Of a stretch of 64,000 bases of DNA, positions 10,451 to 59,620 are shown piece after piece. Below the pieces are notes generated by a model that was given only the letters and a program-made list of their open reading frames with translations, searched no databases and was not told the DNA's origin. Source of the stretch: Candidatus Zixiibacteriota bacterium (lineage in GTDB: Bacteria; Zixibacteria; MSB-5A5; SM23-73-2); assembly GCA_030615745.1 (NCBI GenBank), contig JAUWYR010000002.1, forward strand, positions 15,522 to 79,521. The letters are read 5' to 3'. A program made the position numbers and the translations under genes. Every line of letters begins with the position of its first letter. Within the stretch, counting starts at the first letter, position 1.

Positions 10451-12732
<2,282 letters not shown>

Positions 12733-12868
12733 ATATCTAATCTATTAAGATTATACGTAAATAGCAAGTAAATTTTCTTTAATTTTTTGTATAAAAAATA
12801 TCTGTCCTGCAGGGAAAAACAACCCCCTTCTGCCTAAAAATTAGAGCCTTAAATTAAAAATCCATATC

Positions 12869-12924
12869 TGCGTATGCCGAAGGTCAAGAGACATGCATCG
12901 GAGATCAAGAGATACGCATTCTAC
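12869..12924. repeat. 20-bp palindrome (REP-like; GTAG overlaps dnaN stop) interrupted by two 15-nt CAAGAG insertions
   Basis: Removing 12878-12892 and 12898-12912 gives the perfect palindrome TGCGTATGCATGCATACGCA. Confidence 0.85.
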
Positions 12925-14066
12925 TCCACCAGCCTTAAAGGCATCAAAAGACAGAGATATTCCTCTCCCTCTTTTTGCGGAACAGAATATATAATTCCTG
13001 CAGATACAGAAGTGGACAGCTCAAAAGTTACCTTCTCTCCTTCCATCTGCTTCAAAACATCCAGCACATAGTTGGCGTTGTATCCTATCTCCATATCTTC
13101 CCCTGTATACTCACAGGGGATAGTCTCTTTTGCCTCACCCCCAAGATCAAAATTAACCGAGGATAGTTCTAAACTCCCTCCACTTGCCCCGGCACCCCTT
13201 TTTAAACCAAACTTGACTTGATGAGTCAAAGTATTTGACAAAATTGCAACTCTTCTAACCGTGCTGGTTAAACTCTCTATATCTGCCACAAGTTTTTTGT
13301 CGTTATCCTTGGGTATAACCTGTTCAAAATTAGGATAAGGACCCTCAATCAAACGTGAAGATAAAATAACATCCTCGAGAGAGAAAATGATATTATTCTC
13401 ACCAAATATAATCCCCACATCATATTCTTCTTCACCGATGAATCTTGTCAGAAGGTTTAGAACTTTTGGTGGTATGATCACATCCTCATGCATACCTTTT
13501 AGCTTTTTATTAATCAAAGAGATCTTTGCCAACCTATGACCATCAGTTGCAACCATCTCCATCCTGTCTCCTTTGGTTCGCCACAATACTCCATTCAAAG
13601 CCGGGCGAGTCTCATCAGTTGATACTCCAAATATAGTCTTTCTGATTAAATTAGTTAGGTCAGCTCCGTTAATCTTTATCTGTTTGGCTAAGTTCACCTG
13701 GGGCAATTTTGGAAAATCATCTTTGGGAAGACCTGATATTTTGTAAACTCCCTTTCCGAACTTGATCTCAACACGCGTATCAGTCGAACTCACCTCGATC
13801 TCTGTCTCAGGGGCTTCCCTCACAATATCTGCGAACACTTTTGCCGGAATTGTTATATTCCCTAACTTCTTAACATTTACAGGTAGGGTCTTTATCACAA
13901 AAGTGTCCAGATCTGTAGCAGCTAACCTAAGTTTTCCAACACCTTTTGTATTATCAGTCTCAAGCAAAATATTTGACAATACTTGAAGCGTAGTCCTGGT
14001 TGGAACTACACTTAATACACTTTGGAGCGCTTGTAATAGTTCACTTTTTGCAACAGAGAATTTCAC
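12921..14066 (-). CDS. dnaN: DNA polymerase III beta sliding clamp
   Basis: ATDLD, ATDGHRL, SRLIEGPYP and LLMPLRL motifs. Confidence 0.97.
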   Translation of the reverse strand: MKFSVAKSELLQALQSVLSVVPTRTTLQVLSNILLETDNTKGVGKLRLAATDLDTFVIKTLPVNVKKLGNITIPAKVFADIVREAPETEIEVSSTDTRVEIKFGKGVYKISGLPKDDFPKLPQVNLAKQIKINGADLTNLIRKTIFGVSTDETRPALNGVLWRTKGDRMEMVATDGHRLAKISLINKKLKGMHEDVIIPPKVLNLLTRFIGEEEYDVGIIFGENNIIFSLEDVILSSRLIEGPYPNFEQVIPKDNDKKLVADIESLTSTVRRVAILSNTLTHQVKFGLKRGAGASGGSLELSSVNFDLGGEAKETIPCEYTGEDMEIGYNANYVLDVLKQMEGEKVTFELSTSVSAGIIYSVPQKEGEEYLCLLMPLRLVE

Positions 14067-15679: not shown

Positions 15680-16110
15680 CACCTTTTCCACAATTGTGGG
15701 GAAAAGATAACTCTTTTATTTACATATAATTAGGTGATTCTATTTAGAAAAATAAAAAGTTTTCCACAAAAGAGTTACAAATCAGGCAAATTTTATCTTT
15801 TGTGGCACAACCACTTAAAAAACCACCCTCGACTTTCCACATCTTATTAACAGACTTTAACTTACACTCATCTTTTCACAAAGGTAAATCCGAAAAAACT
15901 TTTGTCAAGAGATTTTATTAAATTACTTTAAAAAAATTTTAACCTTTTAAGAAAACAACTGTTAGAAAGCCCACGAAAAAATATTTAAATAAAAACATTT
16001 TCACTTTTAAAAAATTCAAAAAAAAGAAAAAACCCAATCCATCTTCTTAGAAATTAAAATGATATAGTTTTGGCTTTTCAAAACATTATTAATATAACTA
16101 ATAAAGCTTC
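15680..16110. promoter_or_regulatory. dnaA upstream region with DnaA-like boxes; candidate oriC part
   Basis: TTTTCCACA at 15684 and 15760, CTTTCCACA at 15833, TTATTAACA at 15844; gene-orientation switch nearby. Confidence 0.65.
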
Positions 16111-16114
16111 ATTT

Positions 16115-16272
16115 TCAAAACTCCATTAAAAGAGTTTTTTCGATTTTGCTGATTAGAGTATCTCCATTGTGCAGAGAGCACTTACATCGTCCCTCTCTGG
16201 TTCGAATTCCGAGCTCGTCGAGTATTAGTTGGATGCTTATCAGATTTTTTAGTTTTCTAAATCAATCTTCAT
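16115..16272 (-). pseudogene. Frameshifted, truncated CHC2 zinc-finger primase N-terminus
   Basis: MKIDLE/(shift)KLKNLISIQLILDELGIRTREGRCKCSLHNGD. Confidence 0.6.
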
Positions 16273-16426
16273 TCAAAATCTGTTTGATCTGCGAGATAAT
16301 CACAGGTTTCATTTTCTCGATCTTATCCCGCAAGTTTTTTTCTTCTTCCAGGTCATCGTAATTGGGAACAAAGGTCACTTTATAGCCATTTTCTTCTTTA
16401 GTGACGGGAATCTGCAGAATAGCCAT
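16262..16426 (-). CDS. Small hypothetical protein (54 aa, not in ORF track)
   Basis: GGAGG RBS; MAILQIPVTKEENGYKVTF...QILNED*; overlaps next start. Confidence 0.55.
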   Translation of the reverse strand: MAILQIPVTKEENGYKVTFVPNYDDLEEEKNLRDKIEKMKPVIISQIKQILNED

Positions 16427-16429
16427 CTT

Positions 16430-16693
16430 TCACCTCCCTTCTTTTGTTTTTTGCTTTAATTTTTGAACCACAAAAGTTGCTGATTTCAGGGATTGGAATG
16501 CCTCAAAAAGTCTTATTGTGGAGACAGTTTGTGATCCGTTGTAGAATCCCAGGATTACCTCTTGGGAGGGAGCAGGTTCAAAAATGAAGGTCTTTCGACC
16601 CGCTCCATTATCTTGGATATCCTTGAGAGTGGAATATCCTGAGGCGATTAAAAAAGAAGCGAAAAACAAGTCGGTGGTCTCGTAATGGTTCAT
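16430..16693 (-). CDS. DUF5659-like small protein
   Basis: YETTDLFFASFLIASG...RKTFIF pattern recalled for this family. Confidence 0.65.
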   Translation of the reverse strand: MNHYETTDLFFASFLIASGYSTLKDIQDNGAGRKTFIFEPAPSQEVILGFYNGSQTVSTIRLFEAFQSLKSATFVVQKLKQKTKEGR

Positions 16694-16855
16694 ATCATCT
16701 TTTGTTTTTCTTCATCACGTTCATCCTGCTTTCAAAAACAAAAAATCCCTGTAAAGATTTTATAATCCTTACAGGGAAAAATCTATAGCCCCTCTTGTGA
16801 AAAGTCAAAGACGCTACAAGATTCTTAGAGAATCCCCAGGAAAATCAAACTGCTT

Positions 16856-17920
16856 TTATATTTCCTCCTTTTCGACCTTGTCAAATGCCATGAAAGGATA
16901 TCTGCGACTGCCTTTCACCTTTGGCACCATTACCATGTTCTTAATGTCCTTTTCCATCCGCTTTATTGCCTTCTTTATGACATCCACAAAAGGAACCGGA
17001 GATTTCATCACCTTTCCTCTTTCGTTTCTGCTCTGGCCAGTGATATAAAAGCTTCTCTCATCTTCAAAGTCCTGTGCGTATTTTGGAGACAGAAAACCAG
17101 ATTTTACTTCTCTAATCAAGGCAAAATCATCTAACTCTTTCCCTTTCCTATCTTCTTTGCTGATCTCTTTCTTAATTCCTCTGATAACCAACAAATCGAT
17201 ATCTTCAGGATGCAATTCAGCCCAGATTTTGGCTATTTCTGATGGTCTGAGTTTGCACTCTTTAGCCAAATCGTACCAACACAAATCTCTATTAAAATTT
17301 GTTCTACCTTCCCTTTTGCCCCAGAACTCATTTTGCAATTCCTCAATTCTTTTCCATTTCGCTCGAATATCTTCGAGCGTTGTCCACTCGTTTATACGTA
17401 TCTCAAGCCATATTCGCCCCGTTTCGTCGTTCCAAGTATACCTAATTTCTGCAGGATCGCTCAGATAAATAGACAAAGAATCGATCTTTCCGTCCCACCT
17501 GTGACCGATATCCCAACGTCTGCAGAAGTCTTCCCATTTGAAAGTGTATTGTTGAAACACTATACCTTTGTTCCAAATCCTTTCATGCAAATTCCTAGGG
17601 TTGTAATACTGTTGACAGTCTAGATCTTCAGCGTCTTTAAAATATCTGTCCTTTGGCTTCCGGCCTCTGCATTTCCTGGTCTTGGGATAGTCTAATCTTA
17701 GCCATAGATTCTCTTCAGACTCTTCTTCGAGTTTCTCCCTATAGCGCAAATCATAGTGAAACTTCTTCAATTCAAAAAAAGTGCCTCCTCCCAATCTCTT
17801 GGCAATCCCCTTTAATTCCTCCAGAAATGTCTTATTTCTTGCTAACAACTCCGCCCGTTGAACTCTTTTATCAGAGATTTGGCGATGTTTTTCCAATATC
17901 TTCTTTACTTTCTCGTCCAC
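16856..17920 (-). CDS. Hypothetical protein of the mobile remnant
   Basis: 354-aa open ORF; no recognised motif. Confidence 0.7.
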   Translation of the reverse strand: MDEKVKKILEKHRQISDKRVQRAELLARNKTFLEELKGIAKRLGGGTFFELKKFHYDLRYREKLEEESEENLWLRLDYPKTRKCRGRKPKDRYFKDAEDLDCQQYYNPRNLHERIWNKGIVFQQYTFKWEDFCRRWDIGHRWDGKIDSLSIYLSDPAEIRYTWNDETGRIWLEIRINEWTTLEDIRAKWKRIEELQNEFWGKREGRTNFNRDLCWYDLAKECKLRPSEIAKIWAELHPEDIDLLVIRGIKKEISKEDRKGKELDDFALIREVKSGFLSPKYAQDFEDERSFYITGQSRNERGKVMKSPVPFVDVIKKAIKRMEKDIKNMVMVPKVKGSRRYPFMAFDKVEKEEI

Positions 17921-18333
17921 CTTTTCCTCACATTTTCAATACCAAAATATAGCAATTCAAAACCCAAAAATCAACTAAATTTGTTGAAGTGACCGACCTA
18001 TTTTCCCATAAAAAGAGAACAAGGCGAAAGCATAATCCCAAAAATCGCCTTTGGAAAATCTAAGGATAAGACACACAAAGGGGTTCCTTTGTCCCTGTTG
18101 ATAGGGGTATGGGGTGGGCATACCCCCTACCCCCCTGTTTCAATTTTGTTTCAAATCCACTTATGTTTTCTTACGTTTTTATGGGTTATGGTGGGTTCAG
18201 TGAATATAAGCTATCTTATGTCTTTCTTTCTAACAGCAAGCAATTCGAGAACTTGAGATGCCCCCCCTTAATTTTCCTTGACTAAAAAATTGAATGTTTT
18301 ATTTTAACTTTCGTAGTCAAAAGGAGATGAAAG

Positions 18334-18486: not shown

Positions 18487-18854
18487 TGAAATCCGAAGGA
18501 TTCATAGAAAAAGAGGGCTTTCCTAAAGAGATAAGGATTAAAAAGGATTTAGAATTCAAAGAGGTCATAAAAAAAGGGGAAAAGAAAATTGGAGAAAAAT
18601 TAATTTTATTCATACTTAAAAAAGATAACACTTCTTTGAAGTTTGGTATAAGGGTCGACAAAACCATTAAAAAAGCTACGAAAAGAAACAGAATAAAAAG
18701 GATTATAAGGGAGATTCTGAGAAAGAGCAAGGATAAATTTTTACCTGGTGAGAGGGTAGTGATTGTCTATAAATCTTTGGAAGAAAACGTAAAATTAAAA
18801 GAGCTTCAAAAAGATTTCGATAATTTAGTCGGTATCGATCAAGAGATGAGATGA
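18483..18854 (+). CDS. rnpA: RNase P protein component
   Basis: [14 protein letters not shown] (RNR motif); synteny. Confidence 0.92.
18829..18847 (+). repeat. CAAGAG micro-insertion TCGGTATCGATCAAGAGAT in the rnpA C-terminus
   Basis: Identical 19-mer at 19101, 41960 and 51491. Confidence 0.9.
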
Positions 18855-26265: not shown

Positions 26266-28128
26266 ATGATCACCTACGAGGAAAAATTTGACATAATAGT
26301 TGTTGGAGCTGGGCATGCAGGGTGTGAGGCGGCTTTGGCTTGTGCGCGGATGGGGTGCAAGACTTTGCTTTTGACCTCGAATAAGGAGACCATTGCCCAG
26401 ATGTCCTGCAATCCTGCTGTTGGTGGACTGGCTAAGGGTCAGCTGGTTAAGGAGATCGATGCACTAGGCGGAGAGATGGGTTTTATAACTGATAAAGCAG
26501 GAATACAGTTCAAGACTTTGAATAAGAAAAAAGGACCTGCTGTTTGGTCTTCTCGGGCTCAATGTGATAGAGTCTTATATAGAGTTTATATGAGAGAATC
26601 CTTAGAAAATCAGAAAAATTTATGGCTTAAACAGGCGATAGTCACAGAGGTTCTTATTGATAATGGAAAGGCAAAAGGGATTTTGACAAATATAAATAGT
26701 GCTTATTTATCCGATGTTGTCATTTTGGTTTGCGGGACTTTTTTAAATGGATTGATTCATATAGGCTTAGAAAACTTCCCCGCCGGAAGGGCAGGTGAGT
26801 TTCCTTCTTTGACCTTATCAGATAAGCTTAAAGAATATGGATTTGAAGTAGGAAGATTAAAAACAGGAACACCTCCGAGATTAGATGGAAAAACAATAGA
26901 TTTTTCCAAAACAATTCCTCAATATGGTGATGAAAATCCTAAGCCCTTTTCTCTAAAAACAAAAAAACTGCCAGAAAGGCATTATCTATGCCATTTGACA
27001 CATACAAATGGAGAGACTCATAAGATAATATTAGCAAATTTGGACAGGTCACCACTATATAGTGGAGTAATAAAAGGAATTGGCCCAAGATATTGCCCTT
27101 CCATCGAGGATAAGGTTGTAAAATTCAGGGGAAAACCAAGACATCAGCTATTCTTAGAACCTGAAGGTGAAAATACAACAGAATATTATGTCAATGGTTT
27201 TGCAACATCTTTATCTGAAGATGTTCAATTAAAAGCGATAAGAACAGTTTCCGGTTTGGAAAAAGTTGAGATGACACGTCCAGGATACGCAATAGAATAC
27301 GATTTTTTCCCTCCCACTCAATTGAATCCAACACTGGAGACGAAATTGGTTGAAAACCTCTTCTTTGCCGGTCAGATAAATGGAACCTCGGGTTACGAGG
27401 AAGCAGGTGCTCAGGGGATAATGGCTGGAATAAATGCGGTCTTGAAATTGAGAAAAAAACCACCTTTTGTTTTAAAGAGGTGCGAAGCTTATATCGGGGT
27501 TTTAATCGATGATCTGGTCACAAAAGGGACAAAAGAGCCATATCGTATGTTCACCTCCAGAGCAGAGCATAGATTGGTCTTAAGAGAGGATAATGCAGAT
27601 CAGAGATTGCTCGAATACGGCTATAAGTTCGGTTTGGTCTCAGAAAAGATATACCTTGAGTTCAAAAAGAGGAAGGGAATAATAGAAAATGAGAAGAAGA
27701 GATTAAAAAAGGTGAAAGTCTCGGTTTCTGTGTTTGGTAAGTTAACAGAGGATATGGAAAATCACAAAAGGGTTTCTTTAGCCTATGCTTTGAAAATCCC
27801 GGATATAACTTACAAAGACCTTGCTAAAATTGATAAGGATTCAAAAGAGGTTCCTCAAAGGATTGCTGAGCAGGTTGAGTTAGAAATAAAGTATGAGGGA
27901 TATATCAAAAGGCAAAACCAGGAGATTGAGAAGTTCAAGCGATTAGAATCGATGCTCATACCCCCGGATTTCAAGTATGATGAACTTACCGGTTTCAAGC
28001 ATGAAGCAAAAGAAAAGCTCAAAGATGTTAATCCGATCTCAGTTGGTCAAGCATCCAGGATTTCCGGTGTTTCACCAGGCGATATTGCGGTTTTGATGGT
28101 TCATTTAAAGAAGTTTTTATCGAAATGA
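26266..28128 (+). CDS. mnmG: tRNA uridine modification enzyme MnmG (GidA)
   Basis: GAGHAGCEAA, SCNPAVGG, GPRYCPSIEDK and GQINGTSGYEEA motifs. Confidence 0.98.
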   Translation: MITYEEKFDIIVVGAGHAGCEAALACARMGCKTLLLTSNKETIAQMSCNPAVGGLAKGQLVKEIDALGGEMGFITDKAGIQFKTLNKKKGPAVWSSRAQCDRVLYRVYMRESLENQKNLWLKQAIVTEVLIDNGKAKGILTNINSAYLSDVVILVCGTFLNGLIHIGLENFPAGRAGEFPSLTLSDKLKEYGFEVGRLKTGTPPRLDGKTIDFSKTIPQYGDENPKPFSLKTKKLPERHYLCHLTHTNGETHKIILANLDRSPLYSGVIKGIGPRYCPSIEDKVVKFRGKPRHQLFLEPEGENTTEYYVNGFATSLSEDVQLKAIRTVSGLEKVEMTRPGYAIEYDFFPPTQLNPTLETKLVENLFFAGQINGTSGYEEAGAQGIMAGINAVLKLRKKPPFVLKRCEAYIGVLIDDLVTKGTKEPYRMFTSRAEHRLVLREDNADQRLLEYGYKFGLVSEKIYLEFKKRKGIIENEKKRLKKVKVSVSVFGKLTEDMENHKRVSLAYALKIPDITYKDLAKIDKDSKEVPQRIAEQVELEIKYEGYIKRQNQEIEKFKRLESMLIPPDFKYDELTGFKHEAKEKLKDVNPISVGQASRISGVSPGDIAVLMVHLKKFLSK

Positions 28129-28164
28129 GAGTTGATTCAATGTTAATCGATTTGTTACCCTATT

Positions 28165-28450
28165 TGTCATTGCGAGCGTTAGCGAAGCAATCTCATCAAA
28201 CTCAAAAGATTGCTTCGGGACTTTCGCCCCCCGCAATGACAGGCTAAAATATGCGGAAGCATCAAGAGATAATGTTATTTTGGAAACATTTCACCAGAGC
28301 CATAAAGGATCCCTGGTCGGGCAGGCAATGTGGGTTAAATAAGCCCCACCTTATGGGCAAGGTGGGGATACGATGATATTTTGCGTAGCGGAGGGTTTAT
28401 CCCTCCGATGCAGAGCCATAAAGGCTCCCTGGCCGGACAGGCTGCTACGC
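28165..28450. repeat. Repeat cluster: RPE-like element (28165-28241), CAAGAG insertion (28251-28270), two 15-nt elements (28312-28326, 28428-28442) and GTAG-type REPs
   Basis: GTCATTGCGAG..GAAGCAATCT..AGATTGCTTC..CGCAATGAC; GTAGCGGAGGG-TTTAT-CCCTCCG. Confidence 0.8.
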
Positions 28451-28470
28451 GATTAATTAGATTAGCTTAA

Positions 28471-29154
28471 TTGTTTCACGTGAAACAAACTTATCTCTTG
28501 ATGGGTACCCATCTCAAAAAATTTCAAAAAGCCTGTAAATCTCTTGAAATAGAGCTGACCGAGGAGCATTTAGATAAATTCAAACTATATTCAAAAGAAC
28601 TTGCAAAGTGGAATGAAAAAATTAATCTTATCTCAAGAAAATCTGATACACCAAAAGATATTTATAGACATTTCCTCGATTCCCTTTTAATACTCAATGC
28701 TATAAAGATTCCTTTTCAAACGAATTTATTAGATTTAGGCTCAGGAGCAGGCTTTCCAGGCCTCCCTTTAAAAATCTTAAGAAAAGATATATTTTTGATC
28801 CTCTTAGAATCAAAAAGGAAAAAGGCTTTTTTTCTCGAACATATAGTTGACATCTTAAACCTAAAAAATACAAATGTGATAAACCAGAGAGCAGAAGAGT
28901 TGAGCTTAAATTCAGATTATATTGAAAAATATGATTTGACAACAGCAAGATTATTAGGGAAATTAGATAAGATAACCAAAATTGCTCACTCTTTTTTAAA
29001 AGTCGGAGGACTTTTAGTCTGCTATAAAGGAAAATCAGTTGAAGAGGAGTTAAAAAAACTCTCAAAAGACTTTGAGCTTGAAAAGAAATTCCTTTACGAA
29101 AACTCTGTGTTTGGCTTGCAAAGAAATTTGATTATTTTAAAAAAAATCAAATAA
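28471..29154 (+). CDS. rsmG: 16S rRNA m7G527 methyltransferase (start 28471 or 28501)
   Basis: RHFLDSL and DLGSGAGFPG motifs; synteny. Confidence 0.95.
   Translation: MFHVKQTYLLMGTHLKKFQKACKSLEIELTEEHLDKFKLYSKELAKWNEKINLISRKSDTPKDIYRHFLDSLLILNAIKIPFQTNLLDLGSGAGFPGLPLKILRKDIFLILLESKRKKAFFLEHIVDILNLKNTNVINQRAEELSLNSDYIEKYDLTTARLLGKLDKITKIAHSFLKVGGLLVCYKGKSVEEELKKLSKDFELEKKFLYENSVFGLQRNLIILKKIK
28472..28487. promoter_or_regulatory. parS centromere-like site
   Basis: Perfect TGTTTCACGTGAAACA about 0.7 kb upstream of parAB. Confidence 0.95.
28493..28512 (-). repeat. CAAGAG micro-insertion ATGGGTACCCATCAAGAGAT at the rsmG 5' end
   Basis: Same AT-hairpin-AT-CAAGAG-AT architecture in reverse orientation. 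Confidence 0.8.
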
Positions 29155-41274: not shown

Positions 41275-43410
41275 ATGTTAGGTTTTTTAAATCCCTTAAT
41301 TTTACTTGCCACTCCAGCTACATTGATACCGCTTCTTATCCACATATTTAATCGCAGGAGATTAAAGAAGTTAGATTTCAGCTCGATTCAGCTTTTAAAA
41401 TCTTTTGAGAAGACCAAGCTTAAAAGGATAAGATTAAAGGAGCTTCTTCTTCTTTTATTGCGCTGTTTGATAATCTTTTTAGTTGTGATGGCATTTGCTC
41501 GCCCTACCTGGAAAGGTAGCTTAGAGACTTTTGGCTCTTCTGCACAGACATCCGCAGTGATTTTACTCGATAACTCTTTTAGCACAAAATTCGAGACCAA
41601 AGAAGGCAGCATTTTTGAGATTGGCAAAAAAAGGGCAAAAGAACTTTTAACTATTTTTGGAGAAAAAGATGAAATTAGCCTGGTTGTTTTCAACTCTGAG
41701 TTAGAGCTTTTGACCTCTGAGCCGAGTTCAGATATAAAAGCTTTAAAAAACTTGATAAAAGAGGTCTCTTCATCTTTTTTCTCGACTGATATAAAAAAAG
41801 CATTGTCTTTTGCAAAGGAAAGACTGAAAAGCTCAAAGAATCTTAACAAGGAGATATATCTTTTATCAGACCTTCAAAGAGCTGGATGGTTGGGCAAAAA
41901 TTTATCTTCTATCGGTGATGAGAGTATGCGTATGCCGAAGGTCAAGAGACATCAAGAGATCGGTATCGATCAAGAGATAAGGTTATATGTGGTTGGGTTG
42001 TGGGAGGAGAAGAAAAAAAATGTTGGGATAGTCAAAACAGGTTTTGGGGAAGAGTTAATCCTCAAAAACAGGCCCTTCAGGTTAAATGCTAAACTCCGTA
42101 ATTTTTCCCAAGAACCACAAAAAGACCTTTTGGTGGCTTTGTATTTAGATAAAAAAAGGGTGAGTCAGACAGACATTGTTCTTGAGCCTCAAAGCGACTT
42201 TGATTTAGGATTTGTTCAATCGGAGGACGATGTTGGACTGCATCACGGTTTTTTCGAGATAGAGGATGATGAGCTTTTAGTTGATAACAGAAGATATTTT
42301 GTCTTTTATGTTCCTGAAAAAATTAAAGTCTTAATTTTAGGTGAAAATTTAGGTGATAACTATTATCTCAATTTAGCATTAAACCCAACTGAGGAGAAAA
42401 ATTGGCACTTTGAGATCAACTCAACCACCTTGAAATCATTTAAAAAGCCATCATTTTCCGAATATGATGTTGTTATTTTATCCAATGTGAAAAGTTTAAA
42501 CTCAAGTCAATTAAATAACTTAGAGACTTTTATAAAAAGTGGTGGTGGTCTTGTTTTAGGGTTGAATAAAAAAATCGATTTCGAATTTTATAACCAGAAG
42601 ATAATGAGTAAATTTTTTGGCACAAAGATTTCAAAAATTAACTCCTCAAAAAAGAAAGGATTTTTCCCTTTGGGCAAAATAGATTTTGACCATCCTATAT
42701 TTCAGGTATACAAAGATGAAAAGGAAATCCCTATGGTCAAATTCTACTATTATTTCGATTGCCCCGAGAAAAGAGGTTTAAAAGTTTTAGTTAGATTGAG
42801 AAACGAAAAGCCAATTCTTTTGGAGAAAAGCTATGGCTTAGGTAAAATTTTAGTTTTTTTGAGTTCCTTTGACTCAGATGGAAATGATTTAGTCCTGCAC
42901 ACTTTCTTTGTTCCTTTTGTTCATCGCTGTGTTGAATATCTGAGCAAAACTCGGTTCAGTCTGGGATTTGATAAAGATCTTTTAGTGGGAACTAAAATCG
43001 AAAGGGAGCTTGACCCATCCTTTTTTGGAAAAAAGATCAAATTGGTTGAGCCTCAAAAAAAAGAATTTTTTTTAAAACCAGATTTTGTTCAACAAAAATT
43101 GAAAGTGAGAACACCCAAAACCTCTTTGCCAGGGATATATTCTATATTAGCTGATAGCTTAACTGTTGACCGGTTCGCTCTGAATGTGGACCCTTCGGAG
43201 TCCGATTTAGAGGTTTTAAAAGATAAGGAGATAAAAAAGATATTAAAAGGGTGGAACATAATCTTTATAAATCCTCAAGATGACATTTTAGAGAGGATAA
43301 AAAGTTCACGTTACGGAAGGGAGTTGGGAAAAGTTTTTTTGTGGTCAGCCTTTTTCCTTTTGTTTTTGGAGCTTTTTTTATCGAGGACAAAAGGAGAAGA
43401 AAAGTATTAA
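41275..43410 (+). CDS. BatA-domain / vWA protein
   Basis: FLNP..PLLIH..FSS..LRCL..AFARP; LDNSFS; ESDL motifs. Confidence 0.9.
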   Translation: MLGFLNPLILLATPATLIPLLIHIFNRRRLKKLDFSSIQLLKSFEKTKLKRIRLKELLLLLLRCLIIFLVVMAFARPTWKGSLETFGSSAQTSAVILLDNSFSTKFETKEGSIFEIGKKRAKELLTIFGEKDEISLVVFNSELELLTSEPSSDIKALKNLIKEVSSSFFSTDIKKALSFAKERLKSSKNLNKEIYLLSDLQRAGWLGKNLSSIGDESMRMPKVKRHQEIGIDQEIRLYVVGLWEEKKKNVGIVKTGFGEELILKNRPFRLNAKLRNFSQEPQKDLLVALYLDKKRVSQTDIVLEPQSDFDLGFVQSEDDVGLHHGFFEIEDDELLVDNRRYFVFYVPEKIKVLILGENLGDNYYLNLALNPTEEKNWHFEINSTTLKSFKKPSFSEYDVVILSNVKSLNSSQLNNLETFIKSGGGLVLGLNKKIDFEFYNQKIMSKFFGTKISKINSSKKKGFFPLGKIDFDHPIFQVYKDEKEIPMVKFYYYFDCPEKRGLKVLVRLRNEKPILLEKSYGLGKILVFLSSFDSDGNDLVLHTFFVPFVHRCVEYLSKTRFSLGFDKDLLVGTKIERELDPSFFGKKIKLVEPQKKEFFLKPDFVQQKLKVRTPKTSLPGIYSILADSLTVDRFALNVDPSESDLEVLKDKEIKKILKGWNIIFINPQDDILERIKSSRYGRELGKVFLWSAFFLLFLELFLSRTKGEEKY
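41927..41977 (+). repeat. Triple nested/tandem CAAGAG insertion (51 nt, in frame)
   Basis: TGCGTATGC[CGAAGGTCAAGAGAC]ATCAAGAGA + TCGGTATCGATCAAGAGA. Confidence 0.9.
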
Positions 43411-59561: not shown

Positions 59562-59620
59562 AAAGATCACCTTTTGAACCAGACTGATTAAGATATTTTT
59601 GCGTATCCATTCATACGAAA

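Follow-up and report, generated by a model that had tools for sequence, protein, structure and literature searches.

The closest precedent for the repeats considered here is that of the cyanobacterial small dispersed repeats (SDRs), with lengths of 21–27 nt; in Nostocaceae these are reportedly hairpin-forming and nested, and are said to have been recognised by comparison of orthologous sequences. We know of no enzyme encoded by SDRs or by the units in our genome. Two accounts describe SDRs as ‘some 20 bp long’ (PMC2884548), compared to 15–18 nt for our units with a 20-nt core, and as reported only in Nostocaceae (PMC5861425), whereas the host here is not a cyanobacterium. SDRs and the units are alike in being very short, dispersed, near-identical and mobile-looking, with a palindrome proposed as insertion site. 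SDR-type traits found among the units are near-identical dispersal at a scale of about 20 nt, nesting, and insertion revealed when related sequences are compared. SDRs and the units are not known to be similar in sequence, and, unlike SDRs, the units have a fixed 8-nt tail behind a 2–3 bp mini-hairpin and many in-frame copies inside genes. SDRs are an analogue at most, not a family of which the units are members. Among the papers listed by a literature search for repeats in Zixibacteria, none names Zixibacteria.

Other described systems share some of the features. REP and REPIN sequences resemble the units in having a short conserved stretch beside a hairpin (read on the minus strand, the units have their tail before it), a high copy number and lineage specificity. 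They are extragenic, with 7–10 bp stems, and in the genome of the window (G000; 2.28 Mb, a draft in 74 contigs), which also holds many classical REP families, they come with leader motifs of their own and are found on the flanks of their RAYT gene. In contrast, units with the tail TCAAGAGA have stems of 2–3 bp, lie within ORF calls in 136 of 231 cases, and flank no RAYT gene. Identity with REP/REPIN was rejected on these grounds: the repeats own no GTAG, are not confined to extragenic DNA, and no cognate RAYT gene is flanked by them. IS200/IS605 elements use a single-strand transposition mechanism. Their derivatives and the units both lack inverted terminal repeats and a clear target duplication, have a hairpin at a fixed distance of a few nucleotides from the element end, and insert beside a short specific sequence that depends on the subfamily. 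The units differ by having one mini-hairpin instead of two subterminal ones, a length of 15–18 nt instead of >100 nt, no strong strand bias seen in a draft of 74 contigs and no TnpB; a miniature element derived from IS200/IS605 was rejected, given that neither two hairpins nor an IS200-type Y1/TnpB pair was found and the Y1 genes are RAYT-like. MITEs were rejected as well, since TGCG.. and ..AGAGA at the unit ends do not form inverted repeats and filled and empty alleles differ by exactly 18 nt, with an ambiguity of at most 1 nt. Rickettsia palindromic elements, about 100–150 bp long, insert in frame into protein genes and add peptide segments; they belong to another phylum and are not known to be related to the units in sequence. 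Finally, some insertion sequences target REP loops, as judged from titles listed in PMC3116915 (IS1397 into palindromic units; Tobes and Pareja 2006). They share with the units the use of palindromes as targets (compare the 20-nt core in REP loops of the related genome G012, or the TGCGTATG head as a site for the CCGAAGG unit), while those titles concern full-size elements that encode a transposase.

The block adjoining dnaN

Positions 12869–12918 of the window (the whole stretch of 64,000 nucleotides analysed) read TGCGTATG[CCGAAGGTCAAGAGA]CATGCA[TCGGAGATCAAGAGA]TACGCA, a 50-nt block adjoining the 3′ end of dnaN. Once both 15-mers are taken out, the remaining 20 nt, TGCGTATGCATGCATACGCA, are their own reverse complement. 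The first-pass annotation had described this collapse to a perfect palindrome, and the description is borne out; its brackets, placed one base off, parse the letters just as well, there being a C on either side. With the left 10 nt fixed, the odds of an exactly inverted right half by chance are ~4^-10, and none of 100 shuffled windows contained any match at up to three mismatches. Moreover, both 15-mers are repeat units that can be defined without the palindrome: CGRAGRTCAAGAGA has exact matches in the window at 12878, 12899 and 41936, and the tail TCAAGAGA recurs throughout the genome. The block and related features of the window are as follows.

12335–12349, minus strand: 15-nt unit TCGGAGAGCAAGAGA, related to those of the block and in frame with gyrB (N-terminal tail), encodes SESKR; absent from the orthologue in the sister species G001
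12869–12876, plus strand: putative host palindrome, left part, TGCGTATG; read from the window sequence
12877–12891, plus strand: probable inserted 15-nt unit 1, CCGAAGGTCAAGAGA, mini-hairpin CC-GAA-GG followed by tail TCAAGAGA; from the sequence and G000 copies
12892–12897, plus strand: putative host palindrome, centre, CATGCA; read from the window sequence
12898–12912, plus strand: probable inserted 15-nt unit 2, TCGGAGATCAAGAGA, mini-hairpin TC-GGA-GA followed by the tail; boundary ambiguous by ±1 nt
12913–12918, plus strand: putative host palindrome, right end, TACGCA; read from the window sequence
12921–12923, minus strand: dnaN stop codon TAG, outside the repeat; gives ‘GTAG’ with the preceding GAG codon
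12921–14066, minus strand: dnaN ORF, ending with the TAG at 12921–12923
41927–41977, plus strand: 51-nt cluster TGCGTATG[CCGAAGGTCAAGAGA]CATCAAGAGA + TCGGTATCGATCAAGAGA, in frame in a 711-aa ORF; from orthologue comparison
59600–59619, plus strand: uninterrupted copy of the 20-nt core, one mismatch to the consensus TGCGTATGCATTCATACGAA

We consider it highly probable that the block is a three-level nest of ultra-small insertion sequences, made of an old order-wide 20-nt repeat and two younger lineage-specific units. The base layer would be a copy of the old quasi-palindromic repeat, here in the perfect variant TGCGTATGCATGCATACGCA, and two 15-nt members of a younger, lineage-specific family of 15–18-nt units would have entered it. 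Unit 1, of the CCGAAGG type, sits at ATG^CAT of the TGCGTATGCA head, which is the canonical site and lies 1 nt into the descending arm of the head's mini-hairpin; unit 2, of the TCGGAGA type, is found 6 nt beyond it at a ..CA^TA.. site. The letters of the left part, TGCGTATG, are those with which both the common 18-nt unit head and the order-wide core begin. The contrasting case to insertion would be a TGCGTATGCC..ACGCA-like sequence arising by point changes, in which units are inseparable.

Positions 12878–12919 can also be viewed as a 21-nt direct repeat (CGAAGGTCAAGAGACATGCAT / CGGAGATCAAGAGATACGCAT) produced by local tandem duplication rather than by two insertions. The two 21-mers agree at 17 of 21 positions, and a true tandem array of 18-nt units does exist elsewhere in the genome (C34:40205–40258; three copies compared to two in a close strain). 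Yet the shared tail and the two palindrome arms fully account for the similarity, and duplication would not predict a perfect palindrome two mismatches away from an order-wide repeat. The CCGAAGG and TCGGAGA heads represent distinct subfamilies with 34 and 18 separate copies, unit 1 together with its left flank (26 nt, TGCGTATGCCGAAGGTCAAGAGACAT) is common to more than 20 other loci, and a single 21-nt copy at the locus was found in none of four sequencing runs. Tandem duplication thus has very little to recommend it compared with nesting.

The order-wide repeat TGCGTATGCATTCATACGAA is 20 nt long and quasi-palindromic, differing from the collapsed palindrome TGCGTATGCATGCATACGCA at two positions. 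Nine of the order's 34 genomes contain it, at up to 120 sites each; G033 and G026 are rich in it, as is G012 with 117 exact copies, where it often lies within the loops of longer hairpins: of 12 distinct G012 sites examined, six are in or at hairpins with a stem of at least 6 bp, compared to 8% of random sites. Judging by these letters, the host palindrome of the block appears to be a variant of this repeat. The degenerate relative that had been pointed out at 59600–59619 is confirmed, with three mismatches to the collapsed palindrome. The first-pass annotation had also proposed looking for uninterrupted copies; near-palindromes of this kind exist, as just described for TGCGTATGCATTCATACGAA, but the perfect form was not found in G000, and across the order all copies among the matches listed are of the two-mismatch form.

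On the minus strand the block had been said to begin with GTAGAA over the dnaN stop, like a GTAG-family REP. The overlap with the stop codon is real, while the likeness to REPs is not: GTAG here comes from GAG-TAG, the Glu and stop codons of dnaN, and ..GAGTAG.. is kept in G001, though G001 has no block. Since other copies of the unit have T-W-N-G after the tail, we conclude that the block is not a GTAG-type REP.

Contigs from four of four independent public runs (four studies) bridge 12869–12918 without an indel, the sole indel nearby being 1 nt inserted behind 12814, so that a peculiarity of one assembly does not account for the block. The locus is contained in 20 public runs from 12 studies. 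That the units in general are assembly or library artefacts, such as linker-like oligonucleotides in contigs, might be suspected from very short, identical pieces in a 74-contig draft. However, the same sites recur in separately assembled metagenome contigs and in the four runs, in-gene lengths are multiples of three, and the stems covary, which leaves this explanation with practically no probability. G001 is devoid of the whole 50-nt block, but its divergence (~70% identity at the locus) means that unit boundaries cannot be placed from it. Contigs of the four runs, which drop rare variants, all hold the full block, and no empty or half-filled allele was seen among them. Consequently, the order of events at the block has to be argued from internal logic and by analogy to other loci.

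Located in the dnaN 3′ spacer, the block is fixed in the species and has a putative function at most. A selected cis-element of the dnaN-gyrB region (a terminator, RNA structure or protein-binding site, the repeats being binding motifs) would agree with its position directly behind the dnaN stop and its identity in contigs of all four runs, and the near-absence of tail mutations could be explained by constraint as well as by youth. But the minus-strand RNA fold (–21.4 kcal/mol, z = –0.05) is matched by 90 of 200 shuffles, and an Rfam search over 12300–13100 (E up to 1) gave nothing with E below 0.7, with only a 21-bit chance match elsewhere. The block has no counterpart in G001, and units also occur within coding regions (three sense frames and two antisense ones) and vary between strains. 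A selected element therefore seems very unlikely to us, though a shade less so than the tandem duplication.

A family of units with their own target sites

The tail TCAAGAGA occurs at 345 sites in G000, and 231 of the 341 sites examined have a recognised head. The most frequent class (129) has a 3-bp stem with a 4-nt loop, followed by a 2-bp stem with a 3-nt loop (57); the remainder consists of 25 CA remainders of nests and 20 heads of 8 or 9 nt. For eight control 8-mers, heads of the 3-bp-stem/4-nt-loop kind numbered six at most for each. The family thus comprises ~230 copies of 15–18 nt, each with a 2–3 bp mini-hairpin followed by the invariant tail, and tails with one mismatch stay at background (22 compared to 9–36 in controls). 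In the 18-nt form, both inner pairs are complementary in 118 of 118 G000 matches to TSSGNANSSATCAAGAGA; the stem types of 18-nt units are TGC/GCA (78), TCG/CGA (31) and TCC/GGA (11). There are 34 CCGAAGG-type units in G000 and 18 TCGRAGA-type units, seven of the latter with TAGA next. TGCGTATG has 83 occurrences, in 62 of which CATCAAGAGA or a nested unit follows.

In 24 other clusters the same 15-mer is placed at the same spot of a TGCG.A.G/CA head. This agrees with the earlier claim of a precise 15-nt insertion with ends defined by the collapse, as does the strain-level presence or absence of exact 18-nt units, one of them nested at that very spot (locus L058). One 33-nt composite, copied many times, could also have given the 24 composite clusters in place of separate nestings; differing loops of their host heads (GTAT, GAAT, GGAC, GGAA) and the de novo nesting at L058 count against this. 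The units are discrete, precisely bounded and mutually nesting, with stems that are always complementary.

Each subfamily has its own short target site. All 34 CCGAAGG/CCTCAAGG units are at ..G^C, and one CCTCAAGG unit occupies the same ATG^CAT spot in a G000 copy of the 20-nt repeat, with three empty paralogues. Isolated 18-nt units are found at W(–3) T(–2) N ^ T(+1) W N G(+4), G and C being nearly excluded at –3, –2 and +1. TCGRAGA units have the flank ..A^TAGA, and paralogous empty sites ..TTCA^TAGA.. are seen; units within three larger repeat families have empty paralogues as well. The first-pass annotation had suggested hairpin DNA as the preferred target, and proposed measuring the fraction of insertions that fall inside palindromes. 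This suggestion holds for the CCGAAGG type, with 28 of 34 units in the palindromic TGCGTATG-type head, but not as a general rule: when the sites of 162 isolated units are reconstituted, 18.5% contain a stem of at least 5 bp compared to 14.4% of 5000 random sites, a weak excess.

Strain differences and units inside genes

Twenty-seven metagenome loci, each at least 90% identical to G000, were compared with it. Four of them (L017, L022, L034 and L047) carry an exact 18-nt unit where G000 is empty, L058 holds one more 18-nt unit, which is nested at TGCGTATG^CCGAAGG, and L035 differs from G000 by one tandem unit. The differences amount to exactly 18 nt in contigs 94–99% identical to G000, and show no clear target duplication; a family-F unit in run contigs is also 18 nt long. 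At the L017 junction the unit is followed by A where T is expected; a last base that varies, or a process of copying, explains this better than cutting with strict precision.

The 18-nt form has 118 copies in G000, one in G001, one non-complementary, chance-like match in G029 and none in the other 31 genomes of the order. A collection with one genome per species gave six matches to the 18-mer, five of them without similarity to G000 and read as chance, and the same reading applies to 12 of 46 metagenome matches. Viral contigs yielded one chance match to the 18-mer, without similarity to G000, and none to the 20-nt core. Units are thus present or absent between close strains and nearly restricted to one species; sister genomes have a similarly repeat-rich content, yet the burst is confined to this species.

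Coding sequence tolerates units only in lengths divisible by three. The 18-nt units are found 80 times within ORF calls and 39 times outside, compared to two and nine for 17-nt units (Fisher p = 0.002); the ORF calls are rough (longest-ORF, codon-score greedy), and absence of units from the TGA-containing antisense frame is circular with the calling. In gyrB, the in-frame unit is present in contigs of three of the four runs, namely those that cover it. In the 711-aa ORF, the 15–17 extra residues due to the 51-nt cluster are missing from nine of nine orthologues in relatives.

How the units may spread, and what follows

Our best guess, a tentative one, is that the units represent non-autonomous mobile DNA and that a nick-and-join enzyme of the HUH/Y1 kind copies them in trans, in the form of single-stranded hairpins. 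Such an enzyme would nick and rejoin DNA a set number of nucleotides away from the hairpin foot, like a RAYT or IS200/IS605 transposase, and part of the short target site would be recognised through the unit. Three RAYT-like genes (matching Y1_Tnp) are present in G000, flanked by their own long-stem REPs and without TCAAGAGA units. RAYT-like genes occur in 31–33 of the 34 genomes of the order and units in two, so that their near-universal presence does not track the unit family. The RAYT-like gene on contig C25 has no orthologue above 48% identity, and no link between it and the units was found. RVT_1, the TnpB TNB domain and Cas1 gave no matches in G000, and Y2_Tnp also gave none, which carries no weight because control genomes were equally silent for it. 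Unit orientation relative to GC skew is 101:58 in this 74-contig genome, where genes themselves give 1257:319; this is no more than gene-sense bias predicts and may count against an IS200/IS605-like mechanism. Intergenic units are co-oriented with both neighbouring genes in 30 cases and opposed to both in 22.

The same observations can be accommodated by replication template switching with no dedicated enzyme. A stalled nascent strand would jump by microhomology of 3–4 nt to a donor copy, copy the hairpin unit and jump back, and the subfamily ‘target’ would then be the flank carried by donors. Donor-flank microhomology predicts precisely such subfamily-own flanks (WTN^TWNG; ATG^C(A/T)T; ..A^TAGA); the unit start resembles the base or bases behind the unit (TGCG/TWNG; TCGA/TAGA), and the A at the L017 junction occurs in some donor flanks. 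No replication-strand bias beyond gene-sense bias and no matching transposase were found, as template switching would have it. However, all six strain differences measure exactly 18 nt, where variable lengths and carry-over of donor flanks would normally be expected. Strict stem complementarity in 118 of 118 units, across at least three stem types, points to hairpin recognition, and a burst in a single species is not expected when sister genomes are similarly repeat-rich. On balance, template switching seems to us unlikely, and a dedicated enzyme acting in trans is preferred.

Be that as it may, the units are some of the smallest mobile-looking DNA known. It is quite plausible, if somewhat short of probable, that Zixibacteria-like genomes host an undescribed class of the smallest mobile DNA: non-coding hairpin units of 15–20 nt that are moving now, as presence and absence between strains would indicate, that choose hairpin loops or 3–4-nt sites read through the unit itself, and that pile up and add 5–6 residues to essential proteins such as GyrB. 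Their machinery may be novel, or HUH/RAYT enzymes may have been put to a new use, and the 20-nt core may be ancestral to the TCAAGAGA family. If the units are truly mobile, the lower size limit of transposable DNA would move down to 15 nt, and a second independent system, after the poorly understood SDRs, would become available for studying the spread of protein-less repeats of oligonucleotide size. As the family is young, nearly invariant and strain-variable, with clear subfamily targets, its mechanism is experimentally approachable. For the host, units create in-frame insertions of 5–17 residues in conserved proteins (GyrB and a BatA-like membrane protein) and supply ATG codons at gene starts; gene calling, alignment-based phylogeny and strain typing in this candidate phylum will be misled by them.

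The nested block beside dnaN

When two 15-mers are taken out of the stretch next to dnaN, TGCGTATGCATGCATACGCA is left, a perfect palindrome of 20 nt, as the first-pass annotation had proposed with the same parse offset by one ambiguous base. Each 15-mer is a unit made of a mini-hairpin head and the invariant 8-nt tail TCAAGAGA. The components are as follows:

12869–12876, plus strand: left part of the host palindrome, TGCGTATG
12877–12891, plus strand: unit 1, 15 nt, CCGAAGGTCAAGAGA
12892–12897, plus strand: centre of the host palindrome, CATGCA
12898–12912, plus strand: unit 2, 15 nt, TCGGAGATCAAGAGA, placed at GCA^TACG
12913–12918, plus strand: right end of the host palindrome, TACGCA, then TTCTAC
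12921–14066, minus strand: dnaN ORF, stop TAG at 12921–12923

Contigs of four sequencing runs from four studies span the block unchanged, which rules out a single-assembly artefact. Local tandem duplication is probably not its origin: the 21-nt period (17/21 identical) is accounted for by the tail that both units share and by the arms of the palindrome. The left arm together with unit 1 (26 nt) has more than a dozen short matches in G000, the genome containing the window (2.28 Mb in 74 contigs, 38.6% G+C, 98.55% complete), because this piece is itself a common repeat. The whole 50-nt block is missing from the sister species G001, a congener with about 70% identity at the locus. G001 retains the GTAG from which membership of a GTAG-family REP had been suggested; this tetranucleotide comes from the last two codons of dnaN, GAG-TAG, and the suggestion falls. 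For the region of the block no Rfam family of known RNA was identified, and a stable RNA structure is not indicated by the fold, which is unremarkable (z = –0.05).

Structure, nesting and target sites of the units

The tail TCAAGAGA occurs 345 times in G000, and 341 copies have enough upstream sequence for classification of the head. Heads of 10 nt (3-bp stem, 4-nt loop) precede 129 of them and heads of 7 nt (2-bp stem, 3-nt loop) 57; a further 20 have heads of 9 or 8 nt, 25 the ‘CA’ remainder of a nest, and 110 no recognisable head (background). Eight other 8-mers, used as a control, are preceded by 0–6 heads of the 3-bp-stem, 4-nt-loop kind. The 18-nt unit is TGCGTATGCA+TCAAGAGA, with head variants TCGGTATCGA, TGCGGACGCA, TGCGGAAGCA, TGCGAATGCA and TCCGTATGGA, while 15-nt units take two forms, with CCGAAGG or TCG(A/G)AGA before the tail. 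Both inner stem pairs are complementary in 118/118 G000 matches to TSSGNANSSATCAAGAGA, and the stem types are TGC/GCA (78), TCG/CGA (31) or TCC/GGA (11). Although the copies are non-independent, at least three stem types occur, all complementary, which shows the importance of the hairpin. One-mismatch tails are at control level (22 versus 9–36 in scrambled controls); thus, the copies are either young or constrained. Families of short hairpin repeats are very abundant in G000; examples are TCCCTGGCCGGGCAGGCA, with 86 copies, GGATGATAACATCC, with 50, and several types of the form ‘hairpin + CACTCC’ or ‘hairpin + CCTAC’.

Thirty clusters of two or three units were found in G000. In the commonest, TGCG.A.G[CCGAAGGTCAAGAGA]CATCAAGAGA, a 15-nt unit lies at an invariant spot within the head of an 18-nt unit; the host heads have loops GTAT, GAAT, GGAC or GGAA, and in four clusters the nesting spot accommodates a further 18-nt unit. 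A composite of an 18-nt and a nested 15-nt unit occupies 41927–41959 of the window. The CCGAAGG/CCTCAAGG units of G000 are all (34/34) at ..G^C: 22 directly in a T..G.A.G head (unit 1 of the dnaN block among them) and 4 in triple nests, with single copies in a TACGTATG head and in the 20-nt core (see below), and 6 at (A/G)GATG^CTT of another repeat family.

Sites differ between subfamilies. Flanks of isolated 18-nt units (113 distinct) have W at –3, T (or A) at –2 and T at +1 (69–86%), followed by W at +2 and G at +4 (56–68%), with G and C nearly absent at –3, –2 and +1. The CCGAAGG unit site is ATG^C, and that of TCGRAGA units is often ..A^TAGA (TAGA follows 7/18). The proposal that hairpins are a preferred target stands for the nested types and the 20-nt core and does not extend to the whole family: reconstituted sites of 162 isolated units have a stem of at least 5 bp in 18.5% of cases versus 14.4% of 5000 random sites.

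The degenerate relative of the palindrome at 59600–59619, also pointed out in the first-pass annotation, is its sole match in the window at up to three mismatches (0 in 100 shuffles). G000 has no perfect uninterrupted copy of TGCGTATGCATGCATACGCA; TGCGTATGCATTCATACGAA, two mismatches away, occurs three times, and three-mismatch forms occur twice, including the one at 59600. TGCGTATGCATTCATACGAA, the 20-nt core, is an order-wide repeat. Sites within two mismatches of the palindrome number 120 in G012, 48 in G033, 25 in G026, 6 in G030, 3 in G000, 2 each in G023 and G031, 1 each in G027 and G028, and 0 in the other 25 genomes of the order. G012 has 117 exact copies of TGCGTATGCATTCATACGAA, often embedded in longer REP-like hairpins, either in the loop or 1–2 nt down the descending arm (e.g. 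loci L089, L091, L096 and L100). Of the 12 distinct G012 core contexts examined (from 14 loci), 6 are in or at hairpins with stems of at least 6 bp, versus 8% of random sites, and four of these six cores are in the loop or 1–2 nt into the descending arm. In this genome the core itself acts like an independent small insertion unit. Three G000 cores form the top of a longer hairpin, CCGGCTGGATG../..CATCCAGCCGG; another core carries a CCTCAAGG unit at ATG^CAT, its three paralogues being empty. The head of the 18-nt unit is identical to the first 11 nt of the core, and therefore the dnaN block is a three-level nest of an old 20-nt hairpin repeat and two young 15-nt units.

Insertion in genes, strains and relatives

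A 15-nt unit, TCGGAGAGCAAGAGA (12335–12349, minus strand), lies in frame in the gyrB N-terminal tail and encodes SESKR; it is missing in G001 and found in all contigs of the public runs X2, X3 and X4 that span the site. A 51-nt three-unit cluster (41927–41977) keeps the reading frame of a 711-aa ORF for a membrane protein, to which it adds 15–17 residues lacking in 9/9 orthologues compared. The 18-mer was found at 46 loci in metagenome contigs; of these, 12, without similarity to G000, look like chance and 27, 90–99% identical to it, belong to close strains. Four of the 27 (L017, L022, L034 and L047) have an exact 18-nt unit where the G000 site is uninterrupted, three of them within called ORFs. 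In L058 an additional 18-nt unit is nested at TGCGTATG^CCGAAGG, in what is a two-level nest in G000, and L035 differs from G000 by one unit in a tandem array. In more distant relatives units are at other positions (L021, 79% identical; L032, L037 and L061, 75%). Inside G000, empty paralogues exist for units embedded in members of larger repeat families.

Another 18-nt mini-unit, of the ATCCGAAGGATTCATAGA type (hairpin TCC-GAA-GGA + TTCATAGA), has about 25 copies in G000; the one at 18490–18507 is skipped in one contig each of X2, X3 and X4 (three of four runs). In other copies of this mini-unit the tail holds a TCGAAGA-type TCAAGAGA unit inserted at TTCA^TAGA. The close-strain contig L051 has an extra 23 nt, CCCGCATAAGCGGGATCTACGAC, at about 51650 (G000 C61:67171); this 5-bp hairpin with a 9-nt tail may be another mini-insertion family. 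A strain-variable stretch, 16082–18127, adjoins dnaA: 16504–17837 has almost no contig cover in four runs, and in one X4 contig 6059 other nucleotides replace 2044. Summed contig depth of about 930–1530 at 27843–28509, versus 5–100 elsewhere, marks a highly repeated element, a CTCGCAATGACA-type repeat; one copy of this type bears the 18-nt unit TGCGGAAGCATCAAGAGA at 28252–28269.

In an approximate ORF annotation of G000 (1885 ORFs, 84% of the genome), 136 of 231 units are within ORFs, 86 intergenic and 9 at edges: units are enriched outside genes, yet by no means kept out of them. Each sense frame is represented (24, 52 and 22 units), as are two antisense frames (29 and 9); the third antisense frame, with TGA, has none, which is circular with ORF calling. 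Independently of this circularity, inside and outside ORFs there are 80 and 39 units of 18 nt, compared with 2 and 9 of 17 nt (Fisher p = 0.002), the two scored inside being in ORFs of 183 and 225 nt. Thus, lengths that would shift the frame are filtered out, which is the outcome predicted for units that land without restriction and undergo translation in genes. Units with GGAC-loop heads are locally clustered (5 in 1.6 kb, C71:3289–4844; 3 in 2.4 kb, C40:54556–56934), giving repeated SLDASA peptides from an antisense frame in several ORFs; this clustering may reflect local hopping.

The sequence TGCGNANGCATCAAGAGA has 75 copies in G000, 1 in G001 and 0 in the other 32 genomes of the order; the degenerate pattern TSSGNANSSATCAAGAGA has 118, 1 and, in G029, 1 that is non-complementary, with 0 in 31 others. 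The G001 copy, which has a degenerate one in tandem, occupies an intergenic spacer where G000 has other mini-hairpins, and is not inherited from a G000 site. A one-genome-per-species collection gave six matches to the 18-mer, five without similarity to G000; the sixth, in a MAG of candidate division Zixibacteria, shares 73% identity with G000 over 622 nt, so that the organism of the window most likely belongs to the Zixibacteria.

Proposed mobilisation and precedent

The units have precise ends, nest, are polymorphic among strains and occupy short subfamily-specific sites; their stem complementarity is obligatory and their burst confined to a single lineage. No reverse transcriptase, TnpB or Cas1 was found in G000, and its only HUH enzymes found are three RAYT-like (Y1_Tnp) genes (C17:32076–32576, C25:17632–18177 and C65:19975–20484), each with long-stem REP hairpins of its own on either side. 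Among the 33 other genomes of the order there is no orthologue of the C25 gene above 48% identity. RAYT-like genes are present in 31–33 of the order's 34 genomes and therefore cannot alone explain the burst. Unit orientation follows GC skew only at 101:58, about as expected from the sense bias in genes.

We tentatively favour mobilisation in trans, in which units would move as single-stranded hairpins by means of a nick-and-join enzyme that would measure from the hairpin foot and read a 3–4-nt site. The main rival, replication template switching via flank microhomology, seems unlikely: it accounts for the subfamily-specific flanks and the odd junction at L017, but fails to account for the invariant 18-nt length. 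The remaining probability belongs to routes of other kinds, or to units that no longer move.

The nearest precedent for the units is the small dispersed repeats (SDR) of Nostocaceae, which are reported not to have been found outside that family and of which SDR5 possibly uses the palindrome HIP1 as an insertion site (PMC5861425). Compared with SDR, the units are shorter, built differently (a mini-hairpin and a fixed 8-nt tail), located in another phylum and frequent inside genes. No published description of the unit family was found in the literature searched on this point. The family is of interest mainly since its mechanism is now open to testing.
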